The position numbers and the translations under genes were made by a program. The notes under the pieces were generated by a model, which was not told the origin of the DNA, searched no databases, and saw nothing but the letters and a program-made list of their open reading frames with translations. From Sphaerodactylus townsendi (lineage: Eukaryota), in assembly GCF_021028975.2 (NCBI RefSeq), contig NC_059437.1, positions 35,402,001 to 35,466,000 of the forward strand: 64,000 nucleotides of DNA. The letters are read 5' to 3'. Of the stretch, positions 28,501 to 62,300 are shown piece after piece. Positions within the stretch are counted from its first letter, which is position 1. Each line of letters starts with the position of its first letter.

Positions 28501-31500
28501 CAACAACAACAACAACAGATGTTCAAAGAACCTCTTTACCTCTTGAGGTCCTTCTTGTGAATGGAGCCATAACAGATAGGGCACTTAGTCCAAGTCTTTT
28601 CGCTCAAAGAGAGATAGTGCAAGATACACGGCCAGCAGAAGATGTGCCCACAGCGGGTGATCTTAGCTGCAGTGGGCGGGTAGAGACATATTGGACAGGA
28701 GGGAACTTCATGGCTGTAGATTCGCTGGGAAAGCACAACAGAATCTAGTTTACTAAGCTAAAGTCCAGCTATACAAATGCTTTTTCATTCAAGGACAACC
28801 CTTACTTTGGAAGATGCAAAGTGACTACTCTGCCAGGAGGACACTCCTCCTCCATGCCTGTATTTTGTCTATTAGAGAAACTTTCCTGATATATATTGAT
28901 GAAAGAGCAAAAGAAAACTGCTAGCAAATACTGACAATTCTGATATAGAAATTATTTTAACTCCCCTTTCAATGTTCTCTTAAAATGAATGGAATTTTAA
29001 ACAGCACACCCTGTTGAAATGCAGTTGGAACAAATCAATTTAGAGTCTTATATTCTAAAAGGGTAGCCAAGAGATCTTTGCCAAGCTGTTCTGTCCAACT
29101 TGAAAGTTTAAGCACAACTGAAATGGTCTGATCTCTTGCTTCTGTCATGTTTCCAAAGCCTGCCACGCAAGACTGTTCTAGACTGCTATTTGAAGAAGTT
29201 TAAACTGAGCAACTGCCAGGTTTAGAAGGTGGCAAATGACCCACTACTGTATGGTCACACAGGGAAAGGCAAATCTATTGCTACTGACCACTTGTTCCAC
29301 GAAGTCCCAATTGACCAAGGTATCTGGGTCAGTGAAGTGAACTGTGTAATCCTGATCATCACAAACCACAAACTGGCAGCTGAAAGGAATGTACATAACA
29401 GATTATAACTCAATGCTCTACAGAAAGGGATTCAAAAATACAGATTTTTCAGGATTACAAGCAATGCCCGCCTAGTAATGGCTGGGATATTATCTATTGC
29501 AGGATTAAATGAAAGGATAATCATGCTGCTGTACAAAACAACCTCTAGCAGGAAACCAATCCACTAATTGTTGGCAATTTAATCATGTATTTAATGATGA
29601 TCAAGGGGAGGCAAAATTGAAAATGACTCTTATTAGCTTAAATTTCTATATAGCTTGCCCTAATTAGAAATGTTGCTAACATGTATTTCCATGAGTTAAA
29701 AATCACTTTTGAAGCATTTATTAATATTTAGTTTTAGATAAAACTCTCTTTCTATCTGAAGCAGATGTACATTCTGAGCGTCCAGCCAAGCAGTTCACAT
29801 TAAGGCAACTCCAGGGCTTTCTAGCTTCAAAGCCTTCTTAGCAGAATTAGTATCCATTGTACTGAGACAGATTAGAAATTCAGTACTTCTACAGAAAGAA
29901 TCTGAATACATTTCTATAGGGCTATAGTGCTACATCAATTAGCCATTTTAAAAAAAAGCTTTCCAGTGGTGTTGCGGGGAAAATGACAGCTGCAGGGAGC
30001 TAATAAAGGAAAGCATGCAGGAAGTTCCCAAGTTGAACTCCACTGCCAACTGGAACATGGCTCTGCATTTGCTGCAGCCATAAAAGTCACACAAAGCATC
30101 CTTGCCATTTTAAAACAGCTTTAGATACCTGTAGAATATTTTCAGTAAAGCCACGTTGATCCCCCACTTACTTAGCCTGCAGAAAGAGCTCCTTGTTAAA
30201 AGGTTTGTTCTCTCGCTTGTTCCTTCTCCCCCAGCTGCCACGGCCATTTCCATCGAAGTGATTTGCTTGGCCACGGGGTTCAAAGGTAAAATTCAGTAAG
30301 TGGTTCAGACTGATCTTCTTAGGACCAGAAAACTGGGCAGGGCTGAACTCTGCCCGCTGGGCCTCTGCTACCTAAAAAAAAAGACAGACAAGTAATTGAA
30401 TGAATCAATAAATCAAATAAAAGCAATGTCACAGAGGCCCTTTCCGCATGGGCCTTTTACAGCGCCCTGGGGACGGCAAAAACGCTGTCCCGAGGGAGCT
30501 GTTCGGAAGGGGGGGGGCGCATTTGCTTTGCAGCCGCGCCGCCCACGCTCCTCCCTAGCGGCGCGAAGCCGCCATTTTCCCGCCTCGCTCCCCGAGCGAG
30601 GTTTTTGGAAAACGGCACCATCCCTCCCCCTTTGCCCAATCGACTTACTGTCCCTGCGACCGTCTGGCGCGTCGCTGAGGCCTGGGGACATGCCCCCCTG
30701 CCCTGCGACTCCGGAGTGGACGCGTAGGGCACGGGGGTGTGTCCCCTGGCCTCAGTAACCCGCTGGACGGTAAGTCAATCGGGCGACGGCGCAGCACGCC
30801 ACCGTCTTCCTGGTCATTACCAGGACTGTTCATGCGAACGGTCGGGGGGCGGGGGGGTTGGGTCAGGGTCATGTACGCCGACCTGACCCCCAGCATGGCC
30901 GTGCGGAAGCAGCCATAAATACCCACTTTTGGCAACACTAACATGTAGGAAATACAAATCAACAAGATTAGTCCAGTATGAATTTTTGAAAGTTTGTGTA
31001 CAAAACTGAAGTATCCCAAGTTCAATAAGCAGATGCATTTTACCTCTGGACTGGACTTGCAACTAGCAACACCCAAGACAACAATATTGACCCGATTGGG
31101 GAGTGGGCCAAACACAAGATTTAAGCTATAAGACAAATATTTGAGATTCCAGCATATGTTTATGTCAAAGGATCACTTTGAAATACTGAAATCAAGATTT
31201 TTCATATATTTGTGTATGTGTGAAGTGCCATCAAGTTGCTTCTGACTCATGGTAACCCTATGATTCAATGTCCTCCCAAAAGTTCTATAAACAGCCTTGC
31301 TCAGGCCCTGCAAATCTCAAATTGATAATGCTACTCCCCCCCCCTTCCAATACTCACTCCACACCATCTTTCCTTAAGATATGTTCTGCATACAGATTAA
31401 GAGATGCATTTAGATATTTCTAAATCCAGGTACATACTGACTGGCTATGAACAGCCATTATGCAATGAATGGGGTACTCAGCAAATTTCTAATGTATGCA

Positions 31501-34500
31501 ATCTTTACTTTGGAAAGTTTTGAATATATTGCTCATATTCAGAGTATGGCCCCAAGCGGGGCCTCTCTTGTAACATGCAACAATAACATACTTTTTAGAG
31601 AGGGCTTGCTGGAATGTACTAATTCTTTCTAGAGTTCCTTTGTGTTTCAGTCTCTTCTTTTACCATAGGAAGCCATCCAACTAGTTGTTTCTTGCAGAGC
31701 TGGGAATTGGTTGTCTTTTCCTCTATGATTCAACAAATGATCCAATGGTCCAAGAGCCTTGGATCCCACCACCTTTCTCCTTTTATTTAATTTTCAACTG
31801 CTCTCAAAATTCCAAGCCTCTTGGACCATATTCAGGTCTCATGCTGAAAATGTTTGTTCTTTTTCTTCTGGTTAATTGACAAAGTCACATTCCTTTGCAA
31901 TCTGGAGAGAGACCCACCTACTTGGTAAGCACATGGTTTTGCTATGTTCATGATTAGAGATGTGAGTGCCCAAGGTGGGGGAATGTGTATGCCGACAATA
32001 TGGGAAAACATATGCCTCCCCAGAGATTGCCCCCATTTCTGCCCAGAAAAATTGGAAAATTTTAAAGAAGCACTGAAATAAAAATCCTATGAAATGTTTT
32101 CTCTTACAGTAAGGAAAAACCTTGTCTTAAAAAACATTTCACTCATTCCAAATGCATAGCATAAAAAAGCATGAGAGCTTTTTCCAATTTTCCTTCCTTA
32201 GGGTCACCACATTTAGTGGAGCACTGGAAAAAACCTCATGACCCCCTGCCCCTCGGAATGAGTGAAACGACAGGTAGGTTTTATCAAAACGTACAGATGA
32301 TTTTTTTAAAAAAATGAAATACAAGGTATCATTGTCCAAATTGGACAATAACTCCTTTGCCTATGGTAGACATAAAACAAAATATGTCAAAACACTGTAT
32401 AAATGTACGTAATGGGGGAGGGTTTCCATAAGAGTTTCGTGGGGACTTGAAAAGCTGGAATTCAATTGAGTGAGAATACTAATAGACCCATCCTAAGGAG
32501 AATTACTCCAGTCATTTAACAGGCTTAGACTAGAGTAACTCTGTATAGGATGCCCTGTAGGACATGCACACTGATGGAATTCTCCTTTCTACAACTATGT
32601 GATGTTTTTATCCCTACTCTACTTCCAATGATTTCAGACTGGCACACATGATTCTCTTCTCATAACAACCCTGTGAGTTAGGCTAAGCCAAGAATGACCA
32701 ACCCAAGTTAACCCAATGAGTTTCATAGTTAAATGGGGACTTTAATCCAAGTATTTTCATTTCAAGTCTACTTATGTAAGGATCAGAGGTTCTATACTGG
32801 TGAGCATAGACTGTATTCCAATTCTCAGCAGAGTCAGGACTTCCTTCCCACTGTACTCAAGCCAAGAATTTAACTATGACTACATTACTGATAAGCAAAG
32901 AGCTCTATATCCCCACAAAAGAGAGTTGGGTTGCTATTCTGGCCAACAGTTAAATCAAGAACTCAAAGTACAATAAAGGGAACAGACAATCTAGAAAAAA
33001 AGACTTATCAATTGAGTGGGTAAAGATTAAATGCAACAGGTGCATGGTAATGTTGAACAAAATTAAGACTAGCAATGAAATGAAGCATTTTATATCTCAA
33101 TTACTCAAAGCCCAGAAATCTACTGTAACTCAGGGCTAGTGAGATTGTCAGAGGGTCTGTAGTAAGCAGGTTTCAGTTGGGCTTTACTACAGTTTGGTGC
33201 TACCATATAAAAGATATATTGGCACTGATTTTATCATAATGTGCTACTTCCTATCTCTAACAGCACTTAGACTCAATAGTTAATTGCAGAAAGGAATTAC
33301 AAGTTGAAGAGTGTGTGCCTACTTATTTCAAAGTAATCTGAATTTACACCAAGAATACTCTTCTCAGACCCCTCTTTAATATTTTGTCTCACAACAAAAA
33401 CAAATTCCCCCATTTGTTAACACAGCAGTAGAAGAGAAATATATTCTATGAGAAGAAGCAGGTGCAAGCAATAGGCCTGATCCAACCAGCTTTTCCATGG
33501 GTGAAAAAAGGAGAGGCACCAAGAAAGGTACTCTGGAGATCATGGACCCTGCATAGTCAAAGGCTATGGGGAGCTGAAACAAAGGGGGGGGGATTGGGTG
33601 AAAATAATGGCTGTATCTGACCCAATCATTTTGTCCCCCCAAAAACTTGTTATCCAGGTAGGACAGAATCTCACCTCTTCTCGTCTCCCACCATTAAAAG
33701 AAGCACTAAAAGGTTTGCAACCACTGGCATGTCCTCCCCTCTGAGGGGGCATCTTATTAAAAGCTTTGCTTTTCTGTGAAGTGGAGCGACGGGGCTGGCT
33801 GGAGAAGTTCTCATTTTTTGGATATGAAGTTTCTCGCTTACGATTATAACGCTGCCTGGATCCATTTGCATTTTTTCCATCTAAAACAACATAAAAAGGT
33901 ACATATTTACAACAATTAATACAAATGCAGAACTTCTACAGTAGCTTTATTTCATCAAGTAACGTTTAGAAGTAGTGCTCATTATAGAAATCTTTAAACA
34001 GAAATAATAAGTCGGGTAACTTTAAAAAACTTTAATGCACATAGCATACAATTAGAGGATTTACAAAAATAATAAATGGTACTGATGGAATGCACTCTAG
34101 CAATCTATTATGTTATCCTTTTACACTTATTTACGTACTACTCTCTTTAGCAGCAGCCAGTTCAACATATGTTGGGACATTTATTAAACAAATTTTTTTT
34201 GCACACATTACAGCATAATGCTCTTGGCTACATGGACCCCTTGAGCCAAGCCTTTCTATTTGGCTGATACAAGCCTAAGAAGTGGCGCAAAAAAGGGTAG
34301 TCGTAGTTACAATGCCAAAGAAACATAAGCCTTAAGTCCCCCCTTTAACCTCCCTTACTTGTTTGCAAGAGCTTGCATTAGTATTTCTATCCCACTGACA
34401 CCCAAAGCCCTCTACATTTTTGTATTTTTGTCATACATGGGATCTTGCTTACTTTTAAGTAGATTTTGGGTCATGTTCCTATAATCAGACCCCATTTTCA

Positions 34501-35691
34501 GATTCACAAACATGACACTGTATGTACCACATTTTAGCTGCCTGTTGTGGAAACATCAATATGTTTAATGTCACCTTTCGCTCAGCCAATCTAGAGACTA
34601 AAATGTCTAGACAGATGCCAGAAATTACTATTAAATCTAAAACAGCAAGCTCTCATAGCTAATTACACCTTACATCATGACATAAATGCTTCCTTGCACT
34701 GACATTATGTAAAGCAACTCACACAGAGGAAGTAATTAGGCTTCTCTACAACCCATATAGGCTCCATCATGACTCAAGACTTCAACACCCAGGAAAAAAA
34801 TTGTAGGTAAAACTTTCACAACCGTAATTTAAACAACAGACAAGCAAAAATCATCACCCCTCTTCCCAAAATCATTTGCAACACCACCTGTACAAATTAG
34901 AACCCAGTGCCCCCACACACAACCCTGACCAACTAAAAACAGCCCTTGCTCCACCCAAAACCTTTTATCGCTGAACAACACACTTCAGCATAATTATCTA
35001 ACTTGAATTACAACCCTAGTTTAAATGTAAAACGTCTCTATAGGAGTCCTAAGGCTGCCTGCCACAGCATTTTCTGTTGGTTGACAGCACAACCCTCAAC
35101 ATATAATTAGCAAAGAAAATAAGGAAAGTTCTGCTGGATCAGATCAGTGGTCTACCCAGTCCAGGATCATTGCTCAGTGTTTAGCCAGCTCCCCTGGAAG
35201 GCCAGCAAACAGGGGAGAGAGGCCTGGATGTTGCCACCTGGCGCTGGTTTCCTGAGAACTGCTTCCTCTGAATGTAAAGGTAGCAACTACCTGTTCTCCA
35301 TGAATCTGCCTAATCCCTTTTAAAAGCCCACATCCTCGAGATGTCTAATCCGACTGAGTACTCCCTCGCCAAGAGAGAAGCCATCGCAGCCGTCGAAGAG
35401 AGGTCGCTATTTCTCCTCGCTATATGAGGAAGCTGGACTTCCTAAGGCTTTCGCACCCTGCCCTTAACCAGCAGCACCTCTCGCAAAAGGGGGTCGGCTG
35501 GCCAGTCGCTTACCGCCTTTGGGCTTGGAATCTCCGCCGGCCGGTCCGGTGGAGTTAGAGCGGGGCTGCTGCCCTTTGCCTCCTGCCGCCGAGGAACCGG
35601 GGCCGAGATTGGAGCCACAGGGGCTGCTCTTGTCCATCCCGTCGTCGGTGAGAGCCGATGCTGCTACCTGCGTGGGGAGACGCCGCAGCAT
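19505..35691 (-). CDS. RNF10: RING finger E3 ubiquitin ligase RNF10, 17 coding exons: 35514-35691, 33675-33880, 30172-30371, 29289-29379, 28540-28724, 28297-28436, 26590-26750, 24711-24839, 24131-24389, 23173-23306, 22261-22378, 21822-21923, 21100-21234, 20639-20736, 20378-20438, 20074-20235, 19505-19578; 810 aa
   Basis: C3HC4 [33 protein letters not shown]...KCPIC, plus [42 protein letters not shown] and C-terminus [11 protein letters not shown] match known RNF10; exon lengths sum to 2433 nt with consistent phases; intron 7 uses a GC donor. Confidence 0.96.
23340..23462. repeat. Degenerate ~18-19 bp minisatellite in RNF10 intron 9
   Basis: About six units resembling ATTACTGAAATAATGGGA. Confidence 0.75.
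24592..24664. repeat. 32-bp tandem duplication in RNF10 intron 8
   Basis: CTCCCATAAGCACTGGAGCCCCATTAG x2 plus a partial third unit. Confidence 0.9.
26177..26322. mobile_element. Palindromic hAT MITE in RNF10 intron 7
   Basis: Near-perfect 146-bp hairpin starting CAGTGGTGGCGAACC; perfect 8-bp TSD GTATAGCT (26169-26176, 26323-26330). Confidence 0.9.
26976..27123. mobile_element. Palindromic hAT MITE in RNF10 intron 6
   Basis: 148-bp hairpin CAGGGGTAGGGAACC...GGTTCCCTACCCCTG; perfect 8-bp TSD ATCTAGCA (26968-26975, 27124-27131). Confidence 0.9.
28442..28516. repeat. Poly-G run and (AAC)8 microsatellite inside the 103-nt RNF10 intron 5
   Basis: Read directly; the G run is the polypyrimidine tract on the RNF10 strand. 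Confidence 0.9.
30436..30914. mobile_element. GC/CpG-rich MITE (Harbinger-like TIR) in RNF10 intron 2
   Basis: Ends GGCCCTTTCCGCATGG / CCGTGCGGAAGCAGCC; internal hairpin core GAGGCCTGGGGACATGCCCCCCTGCCCTGCGAC shared with 61239-61747. Confidence 0.75.
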
Positions 35692-36260
35692 CCACGGGCG
35701 CCGCGGGGGCGCTACTGTTGCGGGAGGGCGAAAGAAGGCGGCGGCGGCTGAGGCCGAAGCCCAGGCTCATGGCCCGGCAGCGGGGTCGACGCAGCTCAGG
35801 AGTCTCGGCCACCTTCATGGCGACATCTTCCTTATGGCTTCGCCTTGACGAGAGGAATGAACAGAACTCACTTGTCGAGTTAACAGCCTCACCTGCCGCC
35901 GAGCGCGGCCGGGCCTGCGGGGCCCCCGGGACGGGAGGAACGGCGGAGGGGCGGCGGAGGAGCCCCGCAGGGCCAAGACGGCCCGGCGCTGACTCCGGCC
36001 TAAACGGGCTCGGAGCAGATGTGCCGCCCAAGGGAACCCTCCCTCGGGCCGCCTGGGCACAACCGACGCCGCCTCGCTACCACCGCAGCCCTGTAATGGC
36101 GACGAATCGCCAACAGCAGTGCCCCCAAAAGGACCCGGATGAGGCTATTTCTACCAGCAGGCGGGGCCAGATTTGCCCTCAAAGCATGCCGGGTATTGTG
36201 TTTTTTACCTCTTGTTTGAATGGCTTATGTGGAGAAGAAAACTACAATTCCCTGCGTACT
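35380..36260 (-). promoter_or_regulatory. RNF10 CpG island/promoter with two ZNF143/THAP11-type motifs
   Basis: Very GC/CpG-rich; GCATGCCGGGTATTGTGTT at 36184-36202 (reverse of an ACTACAATTCCCAGCATGC-like motif) and ACTACAATTCCC at 36241-36252. Confidence 0.7.
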
Positions 36261-38379
36261 TTGTAGCAAGCCTTGCTCTCCTTTGACATAAACATATTTC
36301 TACAGCAGCTGATATAAAAGGCAATGGTATAGAAGAGTCAAATGAACACGACTGAAGGGGAAACTTTACCTTTATAGAAGGGTCAAACCGAAATGCTTCC
36401 TCTGCCATCTCCTTCTCTTCGTAGAACCTGCCGCATGTACTTACTTGTTTCTAGTTGAAAACTGGTGGCTGTGGGTTGAGAATCCTCATCGTTTTGCGCT
36501 TCTCTGTTATAATAATACATTGCATTTATATGGCACTATGTTTTAAAGGCGCTTCATGCACGCTATTTCTTTATTGACTTATACTGTAGTCCACCGTTCT
36601 CACTGAGATTTAAGGTGGATGCAACTATTCTGTTCGGTTGATCATGATTATTATCCCTGCCTTGCAGGAAGCGGACTGAGATTTTCTGTACAAAATTATT
36701 CTAGATCAAGCCCATTGAAATAATAAACTGGAGTAAGTCTGTATAGGACTGCACTGTTATAACTTGCCTATGATTAATTGATAGGTAAGTTTGTGGCACA
36801 AACAATATCTGAACTCTGGGCTTCGAGATTCATAACTCTTTATTCTAGCCATCACATTCTTGCAAACTTTACATGACATTCAGGCTGAGCTCTCAACTTC
36901 TGACAAATAACTTTATATTCACATTGCACATCTTCTATATACATTTAAATGTGTTATTAGCCTAATTCTCCTACACTTGTCGTTCCGTTTTTTATTTTGT
37001 CATTTTTATTACTTGGCTTGCTTCATGTTACGATTCTTGAGCTTTGATTTTATTGCATATTGGTATAATGTTATGATTTAGCAGATGCTCTGTTTGTTTT
37101 TATTACTACTTTATTATTAAATATTAAAGTTCACATTAACTAATTGCTTTTAATGATTTGTGAGGTGTCTTAAGATCTTAAACACACAGTGTGTGTGTAT
37201 AACTATATAATTGAGCAGCTTGTTCATGTCGACGAACCAAAAAGGGAGAGTGTCGATGCTGGATTCCTGACCCCAGCTGTGCAGCTGCACCATGGCTGTG
37301 CCATTCCCAGTTGTGGTGCTACTCCCCCCCCCCCCCAATGTACTGTTAGAAGGAGAAATAGGAAGTCTTAGGGGGAAAATTGGAGGGAAATTTTATACCC
37401 TTCCCCAAAATTTCTCACTGAAAAATTAGAAAATTTGAGGGACACTCTGAAAAAGGACTTCTTACGTAATACTGTCTTTTAGAATGAGTAAAATGCTTCT
37501 CAAGGCAAAGCTTTTTGCACTCATGGACAGCATAAAAAACTTAAGAATTTCTTCAGTTTTCCTCTGAATTGAAAAATTGGGAACTTGAAAAACTCTTATA
37601 ATGTTGGCAATGCATATATAGCAAAAACATTTTATGTACATATAAGTAATTTGGCACGAATAATGAGATTAATTATAATACAAAATGAAGGAGTTCAGAA
37701 TTTTCAATGATATAAGGTTTAGTTTAATATCTCCTTATCCCAGGAGTTGTACGTATTGTGATTCTGAGAGTTTCTGACCTAACTTTTATTTTTCCTTGCT
37801 TGGCCAAATAAAAGTTACATGTGCTATAACAGCACCAGGTTCAGTAGTTTACAACTCTCTCAAATATTGGATACCATTTTTCCTATGGAAAATGTAGGTA
37901 TTTTAATTAATTCTCTAATATACCAAATAGTACAATAATACCAGTATATAAAATTATGTTAAAAATGACGCACATTATGTTGTCAAATAAGTCAAAAAAG
38001 TTTACATTTGATAGTAAAATAAGTGCTGCATATACTCAAGTCCCGCCCCCGCCCCCCCCCCCCCATATCCATATTTTTCCGGGGCTTAAAATTTTCTGAA
38101 ATGTACTCGGAATCGGAATTAGTTCAGTGGAATTTAATTCAAAGCTTGGAATTGCAGGGATGAGTCGCGTATTTGGAAGTAAACCACTCCGAGTTCAAAA
38201 GAGTTTTCCAATAATTTAAAAAAAAAGATTAATCTGAGAAATCGGCATGCTAATGATTTGCCGTTTAACAGGCTGCATTGTAGGATAGGATCATTCCTAC
38301 TATTTATTCATTTCCAGCACACTTTTGAGCTTAAAGGATAGGAACGCTTTACACTCACAAGGAACCAAACCCTCGCTGG

Positions 38380-38485
38380 TGTCCAACGCGAACTGGACTA
38401 ACTGCGCATGCGTTTTCCAGCCTTTCAGAACCCTGCGTGAGAGAGATGACGTAATTGAAGCGGCATGAATCAAGATGGCGGCCTT
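38380..38485 (+). promoter_or_regulatory. COQ5 core promoter (NRF1, CRE/ATF-like and YY1 motifs)
   Basis: TGCGCATGCG 38403-38412, ATGACGTAAT 38446-38455, CAAGATGGCGGC 38471-38482 overlapping the start codon; a typical motif set for nuclear-encoded mitochondrial genes. Confidence 0.65.
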
Positions 38486-41400
38486 CACAGGAGCCGCTTC
38501 TTGCCTGGTTTTGCGAGGTTGCCATGAACAGTGGCTGCTTCTTGGGTGGGGGCGTCGGCTGTGCAGTGGAGGGAGGCGCGCGGCAGCCAATGCGAGGACT
38601 CACTTTGGGTTTCAAACTGTGTCTGAGGAAGAGAAGGGAAAGAAGGGTGAGAATTAGGTTGTTATTCTTGGGGAGACACCTGCCCCGTCCCGTCTAGGAA
38701 AGGCGGTACTTAGAGGGCTGCTATCATCTGTTGTTTTATATTGCATTTCTTGTATGGTCAAAGTGTTTCAAGTATTTGTGAAGCCTTGTGGAATTGCATA
38801 AGGCAACATTCTAGGCCCCTGACCTTTGAATATGCGGTGGTTAGATTGCCGGAATTGGATACCCAGGTTAGTATGCCCCCCACTGCCATGGAAGTTTGGT
38901 GAATGACCTTGGGTAAGTCACACCTACCTTCATGTCTTAACTGGCCTCATGGAGCTGCTGTGATTATAAAATGGAGGGGAGGAGAATGAGGTAGCTCAGA
39001 GTTACATTGGAGAGAAAAGTAGGGTGTAAATGAAATAAATAAATAAAACCTTGGCAATAGAGGGAGAAGAAATACAGAAATTAAGTTAAGAGTAGAATGT
39101 GGGCAAATCAAACATATGTCGACTTTGTTTCAGTAAAGCATGGAGACTTAGAAACTGAGGCAAACATTTAACAGAAAATGTTATTTTAGTGATCACAGAT
39201 TAGGATGAAATCCTGGAAGACAGTGGCAGGTTTCCTACCAAGTTAATGCTTTCATATGCGGGAAAGAGCCAGCTTTCTTTGTATCTACCAGTATGAACTA
39301 TAGGTAGGATCCTATGCATCACAACTGGAAGGTGCTGCCATACATACAGATACTTTCTTGTCTTCGCCTGGCACCCATGGTGCAGTGTTTGAGTCCTTTG
39401 TGGACCCCATATAAAATGGGCAGCTGCATTGAGGAAGTAATTGAAATTGCCCTTGTTGAATCCACAGAGCATCTTTTACTAGTGGACAGAACAATTAGGT
39501 CCAATGTAAGCATTATATTCGATCAAAATGGGACTTGTCTGGTCTGCCAGTTTACCATTTTAAAAAAATCATTTCAGTTCACCAAGTCTTTGAAAATGTG
39601 GCAGAGAAGTATGATATAATGAATGATTCAATGAGTCTGGGGATCCATCGAATCTGGAAAGACATCTTCGTGCACCAGATGAACCCATATCCAGGAACCC
39701 AGTTGCTTGATGTTGCTGGAGGGACAGGTAAGCCGTAAACAATCCCAAGCTTATTATGGCTTATCTTAACACCATGTGTATGTTGAATATGCAACTCTAA
39801 ACTATGAAATATACTGTATAGACTAGCCTAGTTTAAAAGAACTGACATGTCAAAAAAGTCCAGAGTGTGTATGTCAGGATATGATTTTTAATGAATTCAT
39901 GTCATTTGATGGTATATGAAAGAAAATATTATAAAAACAGGGAAGAAATTCAATCACAACTGTCAAGCCAATCATGTTAAAGTTAGTTGAGTTAGTTTGT
40001 GGACTAAATGAAAAGTATGAGGAAAACTAGCTTACATTTACAAAATCTAAATTCCAAGGAGCTGGGATACCCATGGAATTTGAAATTCAAAATTTGTCAT
40101 TTCTTCAGGAGGGAAGATTAACGTCATCAACATGAATTGAGTGAACAAACTTTCCACTCTCTATCCTTTGTTTGAACATTTAATTTCAGGGGAGATCCTA
40201 TATTGTGAATCTTCCTTTCGCAACAAATGCAGGTGACATCGCCTTTCGATTTATCAATTATGTTCGTTCCCAGCGGGAGCATCAGGTTCGACAGAAGCTG
40301 AGGACACACCAGAATTTATCATGGCAGGAAATTACCAAACTTTACCAGGAAGAGGAACATAAATCATTGGGGGACTCCCATGTGGTGGTCTGTGACATTA
40401 GCAAGGAGATGCTGAAGGCTGGAAAGCAGAAGTCACGACGTCTTGGCTATTCTGAAGGTAATGAACTGTAACTTCTGCAATGCAGGGGTGCGCGTTAATA
40501 ATGGCAAGCCATAATTGTATGCATTATCATGTGAATTGATCCTATGAAATAAGCTCCAGAAACTTGGAGAGGTAGACCTTTCTCTTTTCTCTAGTGGTCC
40601 CTCAAGACCTCTGAAAAGCCAGAGAATCATGAAGACCTCTTGGACAAAATGCAACAAGGTGTGGGAAGCTGCAGTTAAGAGGAGGAATGCAGTAAAGTCA
40701 CCTATCTTACACATTACCTGCCTCGGCAACAGGAGGAGGTGGAAGAAATTTTGTCTTATTCCCCCTCCTCACTGTAGCAAAACAGATCTTCTGAGAAAGT
40801 GAAGCAGCACTCTGCAAACCTTGACAAATGAAATCAGAAATAGTTTATTAAGGATAGTGATACTAAGGGGTTGACTTGGAGTATTGCCACACTCAAGCAG
40901 GGACAATAATGATTATTGGAAGGTGTAACTCTGGGACAAGCTTAGATGCAAACAGAGTTCAAGATATTATTATGGTTTATGAAGCTGCTGCATAGCAGCC
41001 AACACAAATGGTGTTGTTAGAAATTGGCTTCCATGGTGATTGAATTAGTGGTTGAAGCTTGTCTTCGAGCCATGTGCAGAGACTCATGATTTGTTTCATA
41101 GAAGATCTGAAAGAGAGGTAGCCATGTTGGTCCATAGCAAACTCCAAAAAATAAAAATCATGGAATATTTTTAATAAGATCTGTCCAAATAATACACCAT
41201 GATATGCAAGCTTTCAAGTTCTCCAATACTAATCATCATGATGTATGCTACAAAGCAAAAAAAAAAAAAAAGGTGGGAGGTGTTCCTCAGCCATGACCTT
41301 AAGGCCTCTTCATCAGCGTCTTGTACAGAACGTTTTGCTGCCTTTAGTGAGCATAAGAAGTGGATAGTATCATATTGCACTCTTGCCATGCTAGAAACAA

Positions 41401-49539: not shown

Positions 49540-50600
49540 ACATTTGCACGCAGAACCCTCCAGCGACAGACGCCAGTACCTTCTGTTAAAGGGAAGCCGT
49601 TCCTGCGCCCGCAACCCTGGAGAGCCGCTGTTGCAAGTCCTGAGTCGGTTTCATCGGTTCGTTTTATGCGCTGCCACCTTAAAAGCTCCTCCACCCGCCT
49701 CGCTCCCCCAGAACCACCCCTCCCCGAGACACACGCGGAGAAGGCGGCGGTGCCCCCTTCCATTCCCTGTTTACACCTTTCAGAAATCCCGACCCCTTTT
49801 CCCCATTTCTGAATAAGCACAGCACCGAACACAGTAGCGCCATTTATACAAACGTTTTAAATCGTTTCCGTTCTCGTTCTTTGTAGGGTTTTTTAAAAAA
49901 TACAGAGTCTGGCTCCATACCAACCCCGTGGAAGTGGCGCCGCTCGCTGTTTCCTCAAGGAGTCTGTTGGCATGAAAAGGAACCCCCCCCCTCTCTTCCC
50001 CGCCCTTCCCCCACAGCTGCACAACCTCACGAGGCGCGGAATTCTCCGGACGGGCCTCGCTGAGGAGGGGCTGCCGTCTCCGAGCGCCACCGCGGAGGCT
50101 GCGGCATTCCTCTCACCGTGTGCTGCTGGGCTGCTTCCGAGGACCGCGGGAAGGGATGTTGGTGGAGCGAACGGGTGGGTTGGCGACTCCGCGCTCCTCC
50201 GGCTCCCCCGTCGCGCAACGAACTGAGGAGACCCGCGCGCTCAGCCGCCCTGCAGCCCCTCGCCCGCGACAAGCCTCGAGTGCCGCTCTGCCCACCGGCC
50301 ACGCCCTCCCTCCTCCGCGGCCGGCGCCACGCCCATCCCCTCCCCGGCAACAGTCATTGGCTACGACAACAATACTCCTCGTAGCCTATTGGCTTTTTTC
50401 TCCCTGCTTCCCGCAGGGTTTTATTGTTGCATTTTATTGCGATCCGGCATGCACCGCTACGGCGTCCGTTGCCATGGTTGAGAGGGACTGGGCGGGCGGC
50501 TTCCCGCTGGCCTGGGAGGTCAGTTGAGTGGCGGGCATTTTGCAGAAGTGCAAGTGTGGGGTTCCTTCGGACATGTGCGGGGACCTATTTTGTTTGTCCG
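49540..50600 (-). promoter_or_regulatory. DYNLL1 CpG island/promoter with tandem CCAAT boxes and an RFX X-box-like site
   Basis: ATTGG at 50356-50360 and 50388-50392 (32-bp spacing), GTTGCCATGGTTG at 50468-50480, dense CpG. Confidence 0.65.
50117..50235 (-). other. DYNLL1: Probable non-coding first exon of DYNLL1
   Basis: Minus-strand donor ACG|GTGAG at 50117/50116 inside a CpG island; exon 2 starts GTAACCATG after an AG at 48501-48502, so an upstream UTR exon is required; the 5' end is approximate. Confidence 0.65.
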
Positions 50601-59309: not shown

Positions 59310-62300
59310 TTTTTTTCCTTTTTGTGTATTAAAACTTTTTAAAAGACAAATAAAAACAGCGAATAAGAATATATACCAAAACCATGCTATAAGAGGGAAA
59401 GGGAGGGCTCCTAATTTCCTCTGCGCTAAATATAAATACAGTTTAAAAATTACCACCTGATTCCTAGTTACAATTTTGAAATTATAGTTCAGTTAATTAT
59501 TAACACTAGTTCTTCTATTTTCTTATTCTTCTAAGTCCTCAAATCTACAAATTATAAGTTCATTATTTTTCTGATTGAGCATTTGTATATTACTTTTTTG
59601 AACATTTATATATTACTCTTTTAAATCTTCTGGATTATTGAATCCAATTTTTTTTAGCTTTAATACAAAATGTACCATAAATGGTAAAACAATCCTTCAT
59701 GATGATTACATTTCCAATATACATTTGGAACATTTTATACATTTTTGCTAATTTCTCTGGTGACAAATATCAATCATACATCATTTTATAGAAATTCTCT
59801 TTGAGATTGGACTTTATGTAAATTTAAGACCCCGTGACCACATATTCTCCCATTGATCCATTTCTATATTATACACAAAGTTACTGGTCCATTTTATCAT
59901 ATTGTCTTTCACCTGAGCTTCCTCTGTTTCAAATTTGAGCAGAAACTTGTACATTTTGGCAATAACATGCTCATAATTCATACATAGTTCTGCTTCTAAT
60001 TCAGTTTTAGAATATTCAAAACCATGAGATCTTTTATGTGCTTTGAATATTTCTAATAATTATGCATTAAAAACGACAGGTATGTCCTACTCAATCTTCA
60101 ATTGATTGCATTTTCATTCTTGAGAAGAATCTATTATATGTTAACTACCTGTTTTGAATATCATTTCTTATCTATCCAGGGCTTCTTATAATGAGAGCCA
60201 TAAACATGTTTTCTGAGAACCAGCTTATATTTGTCCTTTATTCTCAGAATGGAACATTTAATATAATGGCATGTTTAATGTAAATCCTTATTAACTTTAA
60301 TTGTTCCATTCCATAAAAAGGCATGCCATACGATTCATATGCCATGTTCCTCTAGTACCAGCAATCTTTTATTTCTCAACAGAATCCATTCTTTCTACCA
60401 AACGAAACAACAAACAGCAAATTTTAATTCCAGAACTGGTAAACCTAATCCTCCCCCTGCCTTTACATCTAGAACAAATATATTTAGTCTGAGGTTTGCC
60501 AAACAAACTTTGATTATCTTTTGCCACTGTTTAACTGGACTATCAGTTGCTAACATAGGTATTATTTGAAACAAAAATAACAATCTGAATAAAACATTTA
60601 TCTTAGTCACAGAAATTCTTCTCAGCAAAGAAGTTTGTTGCACCTTGACAAATCTTTTTTTACTTCATTCCATGTTTTGACATAATTATTTTGAAATAAC
60701 ACAGTTCATATTTGTCAATACTCAGATATTTCACCTTTTTTTCAACCTAAATCCCGTTTTGCTCATCAGCTCTATTTGATATTGTAATTCCATAATTTCA
60801 TTAAAACCATTGTTTTCTGTTTATTAATTATAAAACCTGCTAGTGCACCAAATTCTTTCAGTTTCAATATATTCAACTCCCTTTAACAGGTTTTCCAATA
60901 CCAGCACCAAGTCATCTGCAAAGGCTCTTAATTTATAGATCTTTCTTAATTTTGATACCCTCAATCCTCTCATAATGTCTTAAATATCTAGTCAATATTT
61001 TAAGAACTAGAATAAAGAGGGGCAATAGTGTGCCACCTTGTCTTGTTTCTTTCTATATCTCACATTGTTTAGTTCAATTTTTAATAGTTATTTGTGCTGA
61101 CTGTGAAGTATAAAGCAATATCACCCATTTTATAAAATTCTTTCCAAACCATATTTTCTAAATCTTTCAAAAGACCAGTACAAATTGTCAAACACTTTCT
61201 CTGCATCTAGAATAATAAAGCATCTTGTTTTTCATTATGGCCGTTTCCGCATGGGCGGAATATGGTGGCTTGGGGACGGCAAAAATGCCGTCCCCAGGCC
61301 GCCATTCGCACAGGGGGCGCAGCTGCATCGCAGCCGCACCACCCGACCGGCACGAAGCCAGCGTTTCCGGAGTGCGCTGGGAAGCGCACTTTCCCGGGAA
61401 CGCCGGCTTGAAGCCGCTGCCGTGCGAACGGCAGCGGCTTCAAGGCGCCACCCCCCCACTCCCTCCGTGCACTTACCTTGTCCCCGGGCCTCCGGCGCGT
61501 CGCCGAGGCCTGGGGACATTCCCCCCTGCCCTGCGACGCTGGAGCAGGCGCGCAGGGCCGGGGGGCGTGTCCTCAGGCCTCGGCGACGTGCCGCAGGGCC
61601 GGGGACATGCCGGGTCGGCTGGGCGACGGCGCTCTGCGGCACTCGTCCCGGCTCTTTCTGGGACCGTCCATGCGGACGGTCCCAGCGTCGTCAGGTCGGC
61701 GCAAAATGCACCGACCCAGCCGCTTCCGCCTCCGTGCGGAAATGGCCCAAGTTTCTCCAAATATTCCAAGGCTAGCACTGAAGCCAACTGCATAAAAATA
61801 CAACGGACTGTAGAAAACTGAAACAGCATTGCTTGGTCATCCTATGTACCACATAATAAAGCACTGCCTCCATGTTATGGGATTATGTAACTTGATGTTG
61901 GGAGAGGAGAAATTCCATGTGAATGACTACATGCCTTTACAGACTTCTTACAAACTTTCCACAGGGAATCTGGCAGCTTCCTCCATTCTTCCCTCACATG
62001 CCCATCTTCCTACCCTTTCTCGCTCAATACCTTCTGGGGTTGTTATGCAGTTGGTCCTCCTGCTTGCCCTCCCCATTGCTATTTCTTGTTCTTGTGCTAT
62101 CGCCAGGGCTACTCTGCTTCCTCTTGGCGGCCCTTCTGCTGTTGCCTTCTCCCCTCACTGCCACAGTTGCTGCTGCTGCCTGTCCACTGTGGGATTCTAA
62201 CCTGTGCCCTCAACACCCAGCTGCTCAATAAGTCCATGGCCACCCAGCTGTTGCTGCCTCTTCATAGGGACTGTGGCTGCCCTATCCAAGGCCATGCCCC

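Follow-up and report, generated by a model that had tools for sequence, protein, structure and literature searches.

The upstream reading frames of the RNF10 leader in Sphaerodactylus townsendi, a likely reptile copy of a published translational control element

The RNF10 locus and its leader

The window analysed here, a 64,000-nt stretch of the Sphaerodactylus townsendi genome (NC_059437.1, 35,402,001 to 35,466,000), carries RNF10 on its minus strand. The gene was identified by its RING exon, whose top named matches were RNF10; the search returned 733 proteins at E <= 1e-20, and those bearing names among the 120 best listed were RNF10 or RING finger proteins. The exon 1 region has a single match in the genome, and the segment between the annotated-type start (M1) and a downstream in-frame AUG (MDK) is closest, by protein comparison, to gecko proteins, which begin MLRR. 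The leader, analysed as 419 nt with 71% GC, lies within a CpG island (CpG o/e 0.8-0.9), and its features are collected in Table 1. Elsewhere in the window, the stretches 30460-30774 and 61210-61572 (both minus strand) resemble each other over long passages of their six-frame translations, suggestive of a single GC-rich repeat present twice, once within an RNF10 intron. A perfect match to a TISU/YY1-type consensus lies at 38471-38482 (plus), some 2.4 kb upstream of RNF10, whose strand it does not share, near COQ5-like exons (40184-40468, plus; Pfam Ubie_methyltran).

Table 1. Features of the RNF10 leader and first exon (window positions)
Feature	Position	Strand	Basis or detail
Approximate 5' end of RNF10 leader, within CpG island	36100..36113	-	Primer match, RNA depth, relatives' contig ends
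3-codon uORF Met-Ser-Pro-stop, orthologue of human uORF3; in CDS frame	35815..35826	-	Sequence; Fig. S3H text of PMC12008924
ATGA stop-start overlap of uORF and overlapping ORF	35815..35818	-	Sequence; Fig. S3H text
87-codon out-of-frame overlapping ORF, orthologue of human uORF4 (86 aa, ENSG00000288623)	35555..35818	-	Sequence, alignment
Second AUG of overlapping ORF, orthologue of human uORF5	35768..35770	-	Sequence; 44 nt past uORF stop
Annotated-type RNF10 start M1, weak context	35689..35691	-	T at -3, C at +4
In-frame strong-context AUG (MDK), inside overlapping ORF	35635..35637	-	G at -3, G at +4
Coding part of RNF10 exon 1, ends at splice donor	35514..35691	-	Spliced reads

The primer that opens the human 5' UTR reporter matches the gecko sequence at 36100-36113 in 13 of 14 bases (0.02 matches expected by chance), and by this match the homologous 5' end and the first uAUG are about 285 nt apart. 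Three raw RNA runs labelled as the same species placed 209, 243 and 209 reads on the locus, and in each of them depth was continuous from about 36100, where it fades, to the donor at 35514, across all uAUGs. Contigs from relatives end at 36060-36102, and one of them spans 35514-36036. Splicing at the donor is marked by 38, 49 and 41 reads in the three runs with loose ends at 35514, and these ends match exon 2 at 33880. The earlier note had presupposed a transcription start upstream of 35826; the uAUGs do lie within the transcript in all three runs, but the position of the start is approximate, since a start cluster was looked for in these runs and none was found, and depth is about 2- to 3-fold lower beyond 35770-35840 towards the 5' end, with both mate directions present. 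Part of the RNF10 transcripts may thus begin downstream of the first uAUG. Reads ending elsewhere were also attracted by 36343-36375 and 35113-35168, which are interspersed-repeat fragments and not RNF10 exons, and a 12/14 match to the 5'-end motif at 50180-50193 (plus), in another GC-rich stretch, may reflect a shared promoter motif.

Between 36186 and the main start there are only three ATGs, at 35826, 35818 and 35770, and the layered arrangement of a short uORF and an overlapping ORF described in the earlier note checks against the sequence at every coordinate. The overlapping ORF opened by the ATG at 35818 ends with TAA at 35555 and shares 137 nt with the RNF10 CDS; the ATG at 35770 lies in the same frame and opens 71 codons. 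Both of these AUGs have a purine at -3 and are out of the CDS frame. The third uAUG also sits in an ATGA whose stop is in the CDS frame, as it does in human, dog and mouse but not Xenopus in the published alignment text. Good-context near-cognate codons occur at 36083 and 35976 and may be counterparts of the human non-AUG uORF1 and uORF2. Folding energies of 60-nt windows, taken without a shuffle control, ranged from -12 to -35 kcal/mol across the leader; stability was lowest in the AT-richer segment that precedes the first uAUG, and no conclusion was drawn from these values.

Taken from the gecko sequence alone, this layout is unremarkable and mostly no more than chance would give, the ATGA overlap excepted. 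Of 5000 dinucleotide shuffles of the 419-nt leader, 41% contained at least three uATGs, 15% an overlapping ORF no shorter than 87 codons and 8% a short uORF ahead of an overlapping ORF; the ATGA overlap occurred in 0.26%, a figure for a feature chosen after being seen. Synonymous randomisation of exon 1 left the shifted frame open through MDK in 63% of cases and for 44 codons in 28%. We therefore take the element as real because of its conservation and not because its layout is rare.

Conservation of the upstream AUGs and of the two RNF10 starts

Ford et al. (2025) reported three AUGs in the RNF10 5' UTR whose conservation extends from human to frog, in an alignment that also includes zebrafish (PMC12008924). 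The three gecko uAUGs match this alignment; the earlier note had proposed to examine their conservation across amniotes. According to the text of Fig. S3H, ATGTCGCC followed by an in-frame stop is present in human, dog, mouse, Xenopus and zebrafish and is invariant at base level from human to zebrafish, ATGTCGCCATGA is present in human, dog, mouse and Xenopus, and the third AUG has the same flank in the aligned species as in the gecko. The proposed conservation of the ATGA overlap holds in part: read by eye, the figure has ATGA in four of the five species, but zebrafish reads ATG TCG CCG TAA TG, where stop and start overlap as UAAUG and the frame offset is unchanged. The distance from AUG4 to AUG5, also read by eye and valid if the alignment blocks of Fig. 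S3H are contiguous, is 51 nt in mammals, 48 nt in the gecko, 39 nt in Xenopus and 24 nt in zebrafish, in every case a multiple of three. Neither the zebrafish form nor this spacing was found discussed in the available RNF10 uORF and microprotein literature, a scope that leaves out most subscription papers. Both overlap forms, AUGA in the tetrapods and UAAUG in zebrafish, are also those of viral TURBS termination-reinitiation, whereas the upstream ORF of RNF10 has three codons and is not long (PMC10275272, as far as its available text goes).

The gecko and human cassettes belong to the same gene, share the three AUGs in the same order and with the same flanks, the ATGA overlap, the placement of uORF4 and uORF5 out of the CDS frame and a homologous leader 5' end; human has two further, non-AUG uORFs on record, and the alignment of PMC12008924, as displayed in its figure, is without a reptile. 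The gecko element is thus likely the reptile copy of the published control element and not a new one. Four publications (PMC12008924, PMC11604940, PMC10654591, PMC10032668) already cover the element, the fact that it is translated and its connection with the supply of 60S.

The block at the first AUG could also be read as a DNA element, YY1/TISU-like and downstream of the TSS, with the uORF as a by-product; the base-level invariance of ATGTCGCC from human to zebrafish and the fit of 35819-35830 to the TISU consensus with two mismatches both speak for it. We consider this very improbable. Matches with two mismatches number 20 in the window against 8.8 expected, so that the fit is weak, and the site lies about 285 nt from the 5' end and not in a short leader. 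In the published alignment text zebrafish has changed bases while retaining the in-frame stop and the overlapped AUG, the uORF mutants act on a translation reporter (PMC12008924), and the AUG at 35770 is left unexplained by a DNA element at the first AUG.

Closer comparison came from contigs of relatives. Three runs (X1, X2 and X4), from one study and about 88-97% alike by piece, cover the uAUGs, and among the differences listed there is no change at the three uAUGs, the uORF stop or M1; of the five relative runs compared, X3 covers only 35959-36026 and X9 gave no coverage. The MDK AUG, covered in X4 only, and the ORF stop, covered in X1 and X4, are likewise unchanged among the differences listed. 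Indels inside the overlapping ORF, in the raw runs and the relatives together, are of 3 nt, of 6 nt or net zero. At a GCC run at 35736, an in-frame 3-nt insertion is present in 20/34, 20/34 and 32/57 reads of the three runs (about 57%), and X4 carries a 6-nt insertion at the same place. An apparent frameshift at 35673-35680 in X1 and X2, a +1/-1 indel pair, was read as aligned nearby substitutions with a net length change of zero. For the two uAUG blocks, a gapped DNA pattern found no match in metagenome contigs.

Downstream of the uAUGs the gene offers two in-frame starts, M1, whose -3 base is a pyrimidine by eye in all five rows of Fig. S3H (PMC12008924), and the MDK AUG, which is likely a second RNF10 start. 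The motif MD[KR][SN] is present in 91 of 94 RNF10 orthologues containing exon 1 and forms the first residues in 8, including four snakes, and the spacer from M1 to MDK varies among orthologues from 10 to 39 residues, reaching 56 in an agamid model. Counting the differences listed for X4, 9 of 54 bases are changed between M1 and MDK; the stretch between the uAUGs has 2 changes in 57 bases (P 0.03) and that after MDK 3 in 83 (P 0.01). By these comparisons the MDK AUG is the more stable and more conserved start, the N-termini compared being set by annotation choices and not by experiments. Gene models suggest that the weak first AUG may have been lost in snakes. RNF10 models starting at MDK are P0003, P0011, P0012 and P0065 from snakes and P0091 from Rhineura.

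Two further gene models reach into the leader frame. One, from a pit viper, begins at the AUG corresponding to 35818, with an ORF N-terminus identical at 22 of 42 residues (E 2e-7), and is the sole such match among the 120 N-termini compared. The other, the agamid RNF10 model of Phrynocephalus forsythii (P0029), opens with the uORF5 peptide MSLGFG, a 6/6 match that is not significant alone, and runs through residues 1-57 in frame into MDK. This would be either an overlapping frame turned into an N-terminal extension, with the brake lost, or an assembly error or indel.

Alternative readings of the overlapping frame

The overlapping frame has a protein-coding record in mammals, and one may ask whether it is kept for the function of its 86-87 aa product, rich in Arg, Ala, Ser and Pro, which would make the RNF10 mRNA bicistronic. 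In the catalogue of Sandmann et al. (2023), as given in its available part, the human ORF is annotated as protein-coding and conserved (86 aa, ENSG00000288623), was found in three Ribo-seq studies and one MS study, was detected on overexpression and was positive in a CRISPR screen (PMC10032668). In the accessible text of Zeng et al. (2023), the mouse ORF of 261 nt gave a 10 kDa band in CT26 cells and a T-cell epitope, RLFGQQQRA (PMC10654591); this peptide, which the earlier note had given as human and in need of verification, is real and lies in this shifted frame. The gecko ORF (264 nt) has the same frame and start as its human and mouse counterparts, a similar length (87 aa, against 86 in human) and, by eye, the shared blocks MK, AMSLG, APVDAA, GQEQ and QRA-AAPL, and the spacing from AUG4 to AUG5 has stayed a multiple of three.

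Other evidence speaks against this reading, and we consider a function of the product unlikely to be what has kept the frame open. By eye, the blocks common with human fall on AUG contexts (AMSLG, APVDAA) or shadow conserved RNF10 residues (GQEQ under MDKS, QRA-AAPL under KGQQPR), and the residues at the RLFGQQQRA position differ in the gecko. The shifted-frame stop, whose conservation the earlier note had put forward as a check, is displaced: the gecko ORF ends at the AAPL block, and the human one, by eye, continues for nine more codons. Of the 14 distinct sites at which the relatives differ in the leader-only part, 5 are synonymous, with 31% expected (P 0.77), too small a sample to show selection or to discount it. 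Between M1 and MDK all nine of the changes listed for X4 lie in codons in which they alter the ORF residue. The CRISPR result is open to the objection that cuts here would also strike the RNF10 leader or CDS. The peptide is of low complexity and belongs to no Pfam family, and in a word-indexed homologue search with the 87-aa ORF none of 11 candidates scored. Four HMMER matches among 1.84 billion representatives were to long repetitive proteins, with 5-18 stretches each and unrelated Pfam labels, and were rejected as compositional. These homologue negatives are weak, because the searched collections are without most small ORFs.

Stress-regulated reinitiation is the other reading of the same architecture. 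The ATF4 leader, which works by delayed reinitiation, combines a 3-codon uORF with a later ORF that is out of frame and reaches into the CDS. The RNF10 leader is alike in having a 3-codon uORF ahead of an out-of-frame ORF that overlaps the CDS by 137 nt, and the earlier note had likened it to this design. On such a reading, ribosomes would translate Met-Ser-Pro, reinitiate at 35770 and be lost, and would bypass 35770 when eIF2 is phosphorylated, so that RNF10 would be induced by the integrated stress response. The activity of RNF10 does rise under this response, and conservation of the uORF and its stop reaches zebrafish in the published alignment text. We find this reading improbable, slightly more so than a function of the peptide, and in this point the earlier note is not supported. 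The first overlapping-ORF AUG, 35818, lies upstream of the uORF stop and so cannot be a reinitiation trap; only 35770 could, and it follows that stop by a gap of only 44 nt. The stop-start overlap with the first inhibitory AUG and the two in-frame CDS starts further set RNF10 apart from ATF4. Human RNF10 was also not spared in two datasets with eIF2 phosphorylation, as far as their supplements go. Under arsenite, the fold change of RNF10 translation efficiency was 0.12 (Z -1.39), against 1.3 (Z 8.16) for ATF4 (PMC4383229). Under tunicamycin, RNF10 stood at 1.06 times and ATF4 at 6.4 times the median of 34 genes, these being the genes with at least 200 untreated footprints among 59 rows of a 10,943-row table (PMC4341466). 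A comparison of basal footprint-to-mRNA ratios was set aside, since high footprint counts had been the criterion for choosing the 34 genes. Both datasets are of HEK293 type and acute, and their CDS counts may include footprints of the overlapping ORF, which could hide a small rise.

A probable brake on RNF10 translation and the supply of 60S subunits

Translational control of RNF10 tied to the balance of 40S and 60S subunits, which the earlier note had offered as an inference, is already in print for human cells. In the available part of Ford et al. (2025), Ribo-seq gave at least four translated uORFs in the human RNF10 5' UTR, loss of all five uORF starts, including two non-AUG starts, lifted a reporter more than 9-fold, and GTPBP4 knockdown raised the wild-type RNF10 leader reporter, that is, the leader was derepressed on loss of 60S biogenesis (PMC12008924). 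Lehmann et al. (2024), in the text available, reported that RNF10 rose about 2-fold on RPL7 knockdown, whereas its mRNA stayed unchanged and nothing pointed to stabilisation (PMC11604940). Five further sources, in their available parts, had no bearing on the uORFs of RNF10 itself (10.1101/2024.07.30.605914, 10.1101/2021.04.20.440649, PMC13075771, PMC13275300 and 10.64898/2026.04.17.719311).

The sequence, transcription and orthology of the uAUGs are established in the gecko. Carrying the function over from human, we consider that they probably act as they do in human cells, as a standing brake that is likely leaky when 60S is scarce. Scanning ribosomes would be diverted by the out-of-frame AUGs at 35818 and 35770 past both RNF10 starts and lost to the CDS, and the short uORF would modulate how many of them enter the first trap, since ribosomes translating Met-Ser-Pro would miss 35818, with reinitiation possible at 35770 or beyond it. 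By analogy with yeast, slow joining of 60S may let 48S complexes slide past the uAUGs so that more of them reach the CDS, where initiation would probably often occur at the strong MDK AUG, and the extra RNF10 would then mark surplus 40S for decay. The yeast analogy rests on 60S-deficient strains (rpl33a, rpl16b), in which leaky scanning of an overlapping uORF reporter was 2-4-fold, according to the available text (PMC9700599). The physical basis in this GCN4 uORF system, slow 60S joining that lets complexes pass an inhibitory uAUG, is likely the same, whereas what is a mutant phenotype there would be a regulatory input in RNF10.

More tentatively, and with the balance of our judgement against it, the cassette could serve specifically to sense 60S joining, indifferent to eIF2 phosphorylation, with RNF10 started at MDK, an AUG masked by the overlapping ORF, as its output. 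The Met-Ser-Pro stop-start module and the two same-frame traps would then determine the share of 48S complexes that get through, and there may be feedback if RNF10 acts on 40S subunits stalled on the RNF10 leader. According to its primer table, the published reporter joins luciferase at M1, without the overlap, the ORF stop or the MDK AUG, and its uORF4 mutation also abolishes the uORF3 stop, which would extend uORF3 from 3 to 17 codons (PMC12008924). This reporter is blind to output from the MDK AUG because it ends at M1. Neither design point was found discussed in the available part of the RNF10 uORF literature.

Our additions to the published work are modest: evidence against the ATF4-type reading, attention to the MDK AUG as the better conserved of the two starts, and the design gap in the published reporter. 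The gecko sequence supplies the reptile copy that fills an expected gap in the human-to-fish alignment. RNF10 triggers the decay of surplus or stalled 40S, and a leader that reads the supply of 60S would rebalance the ribosomal subunits, a link already published for human and one that bears on ribosomopathies.
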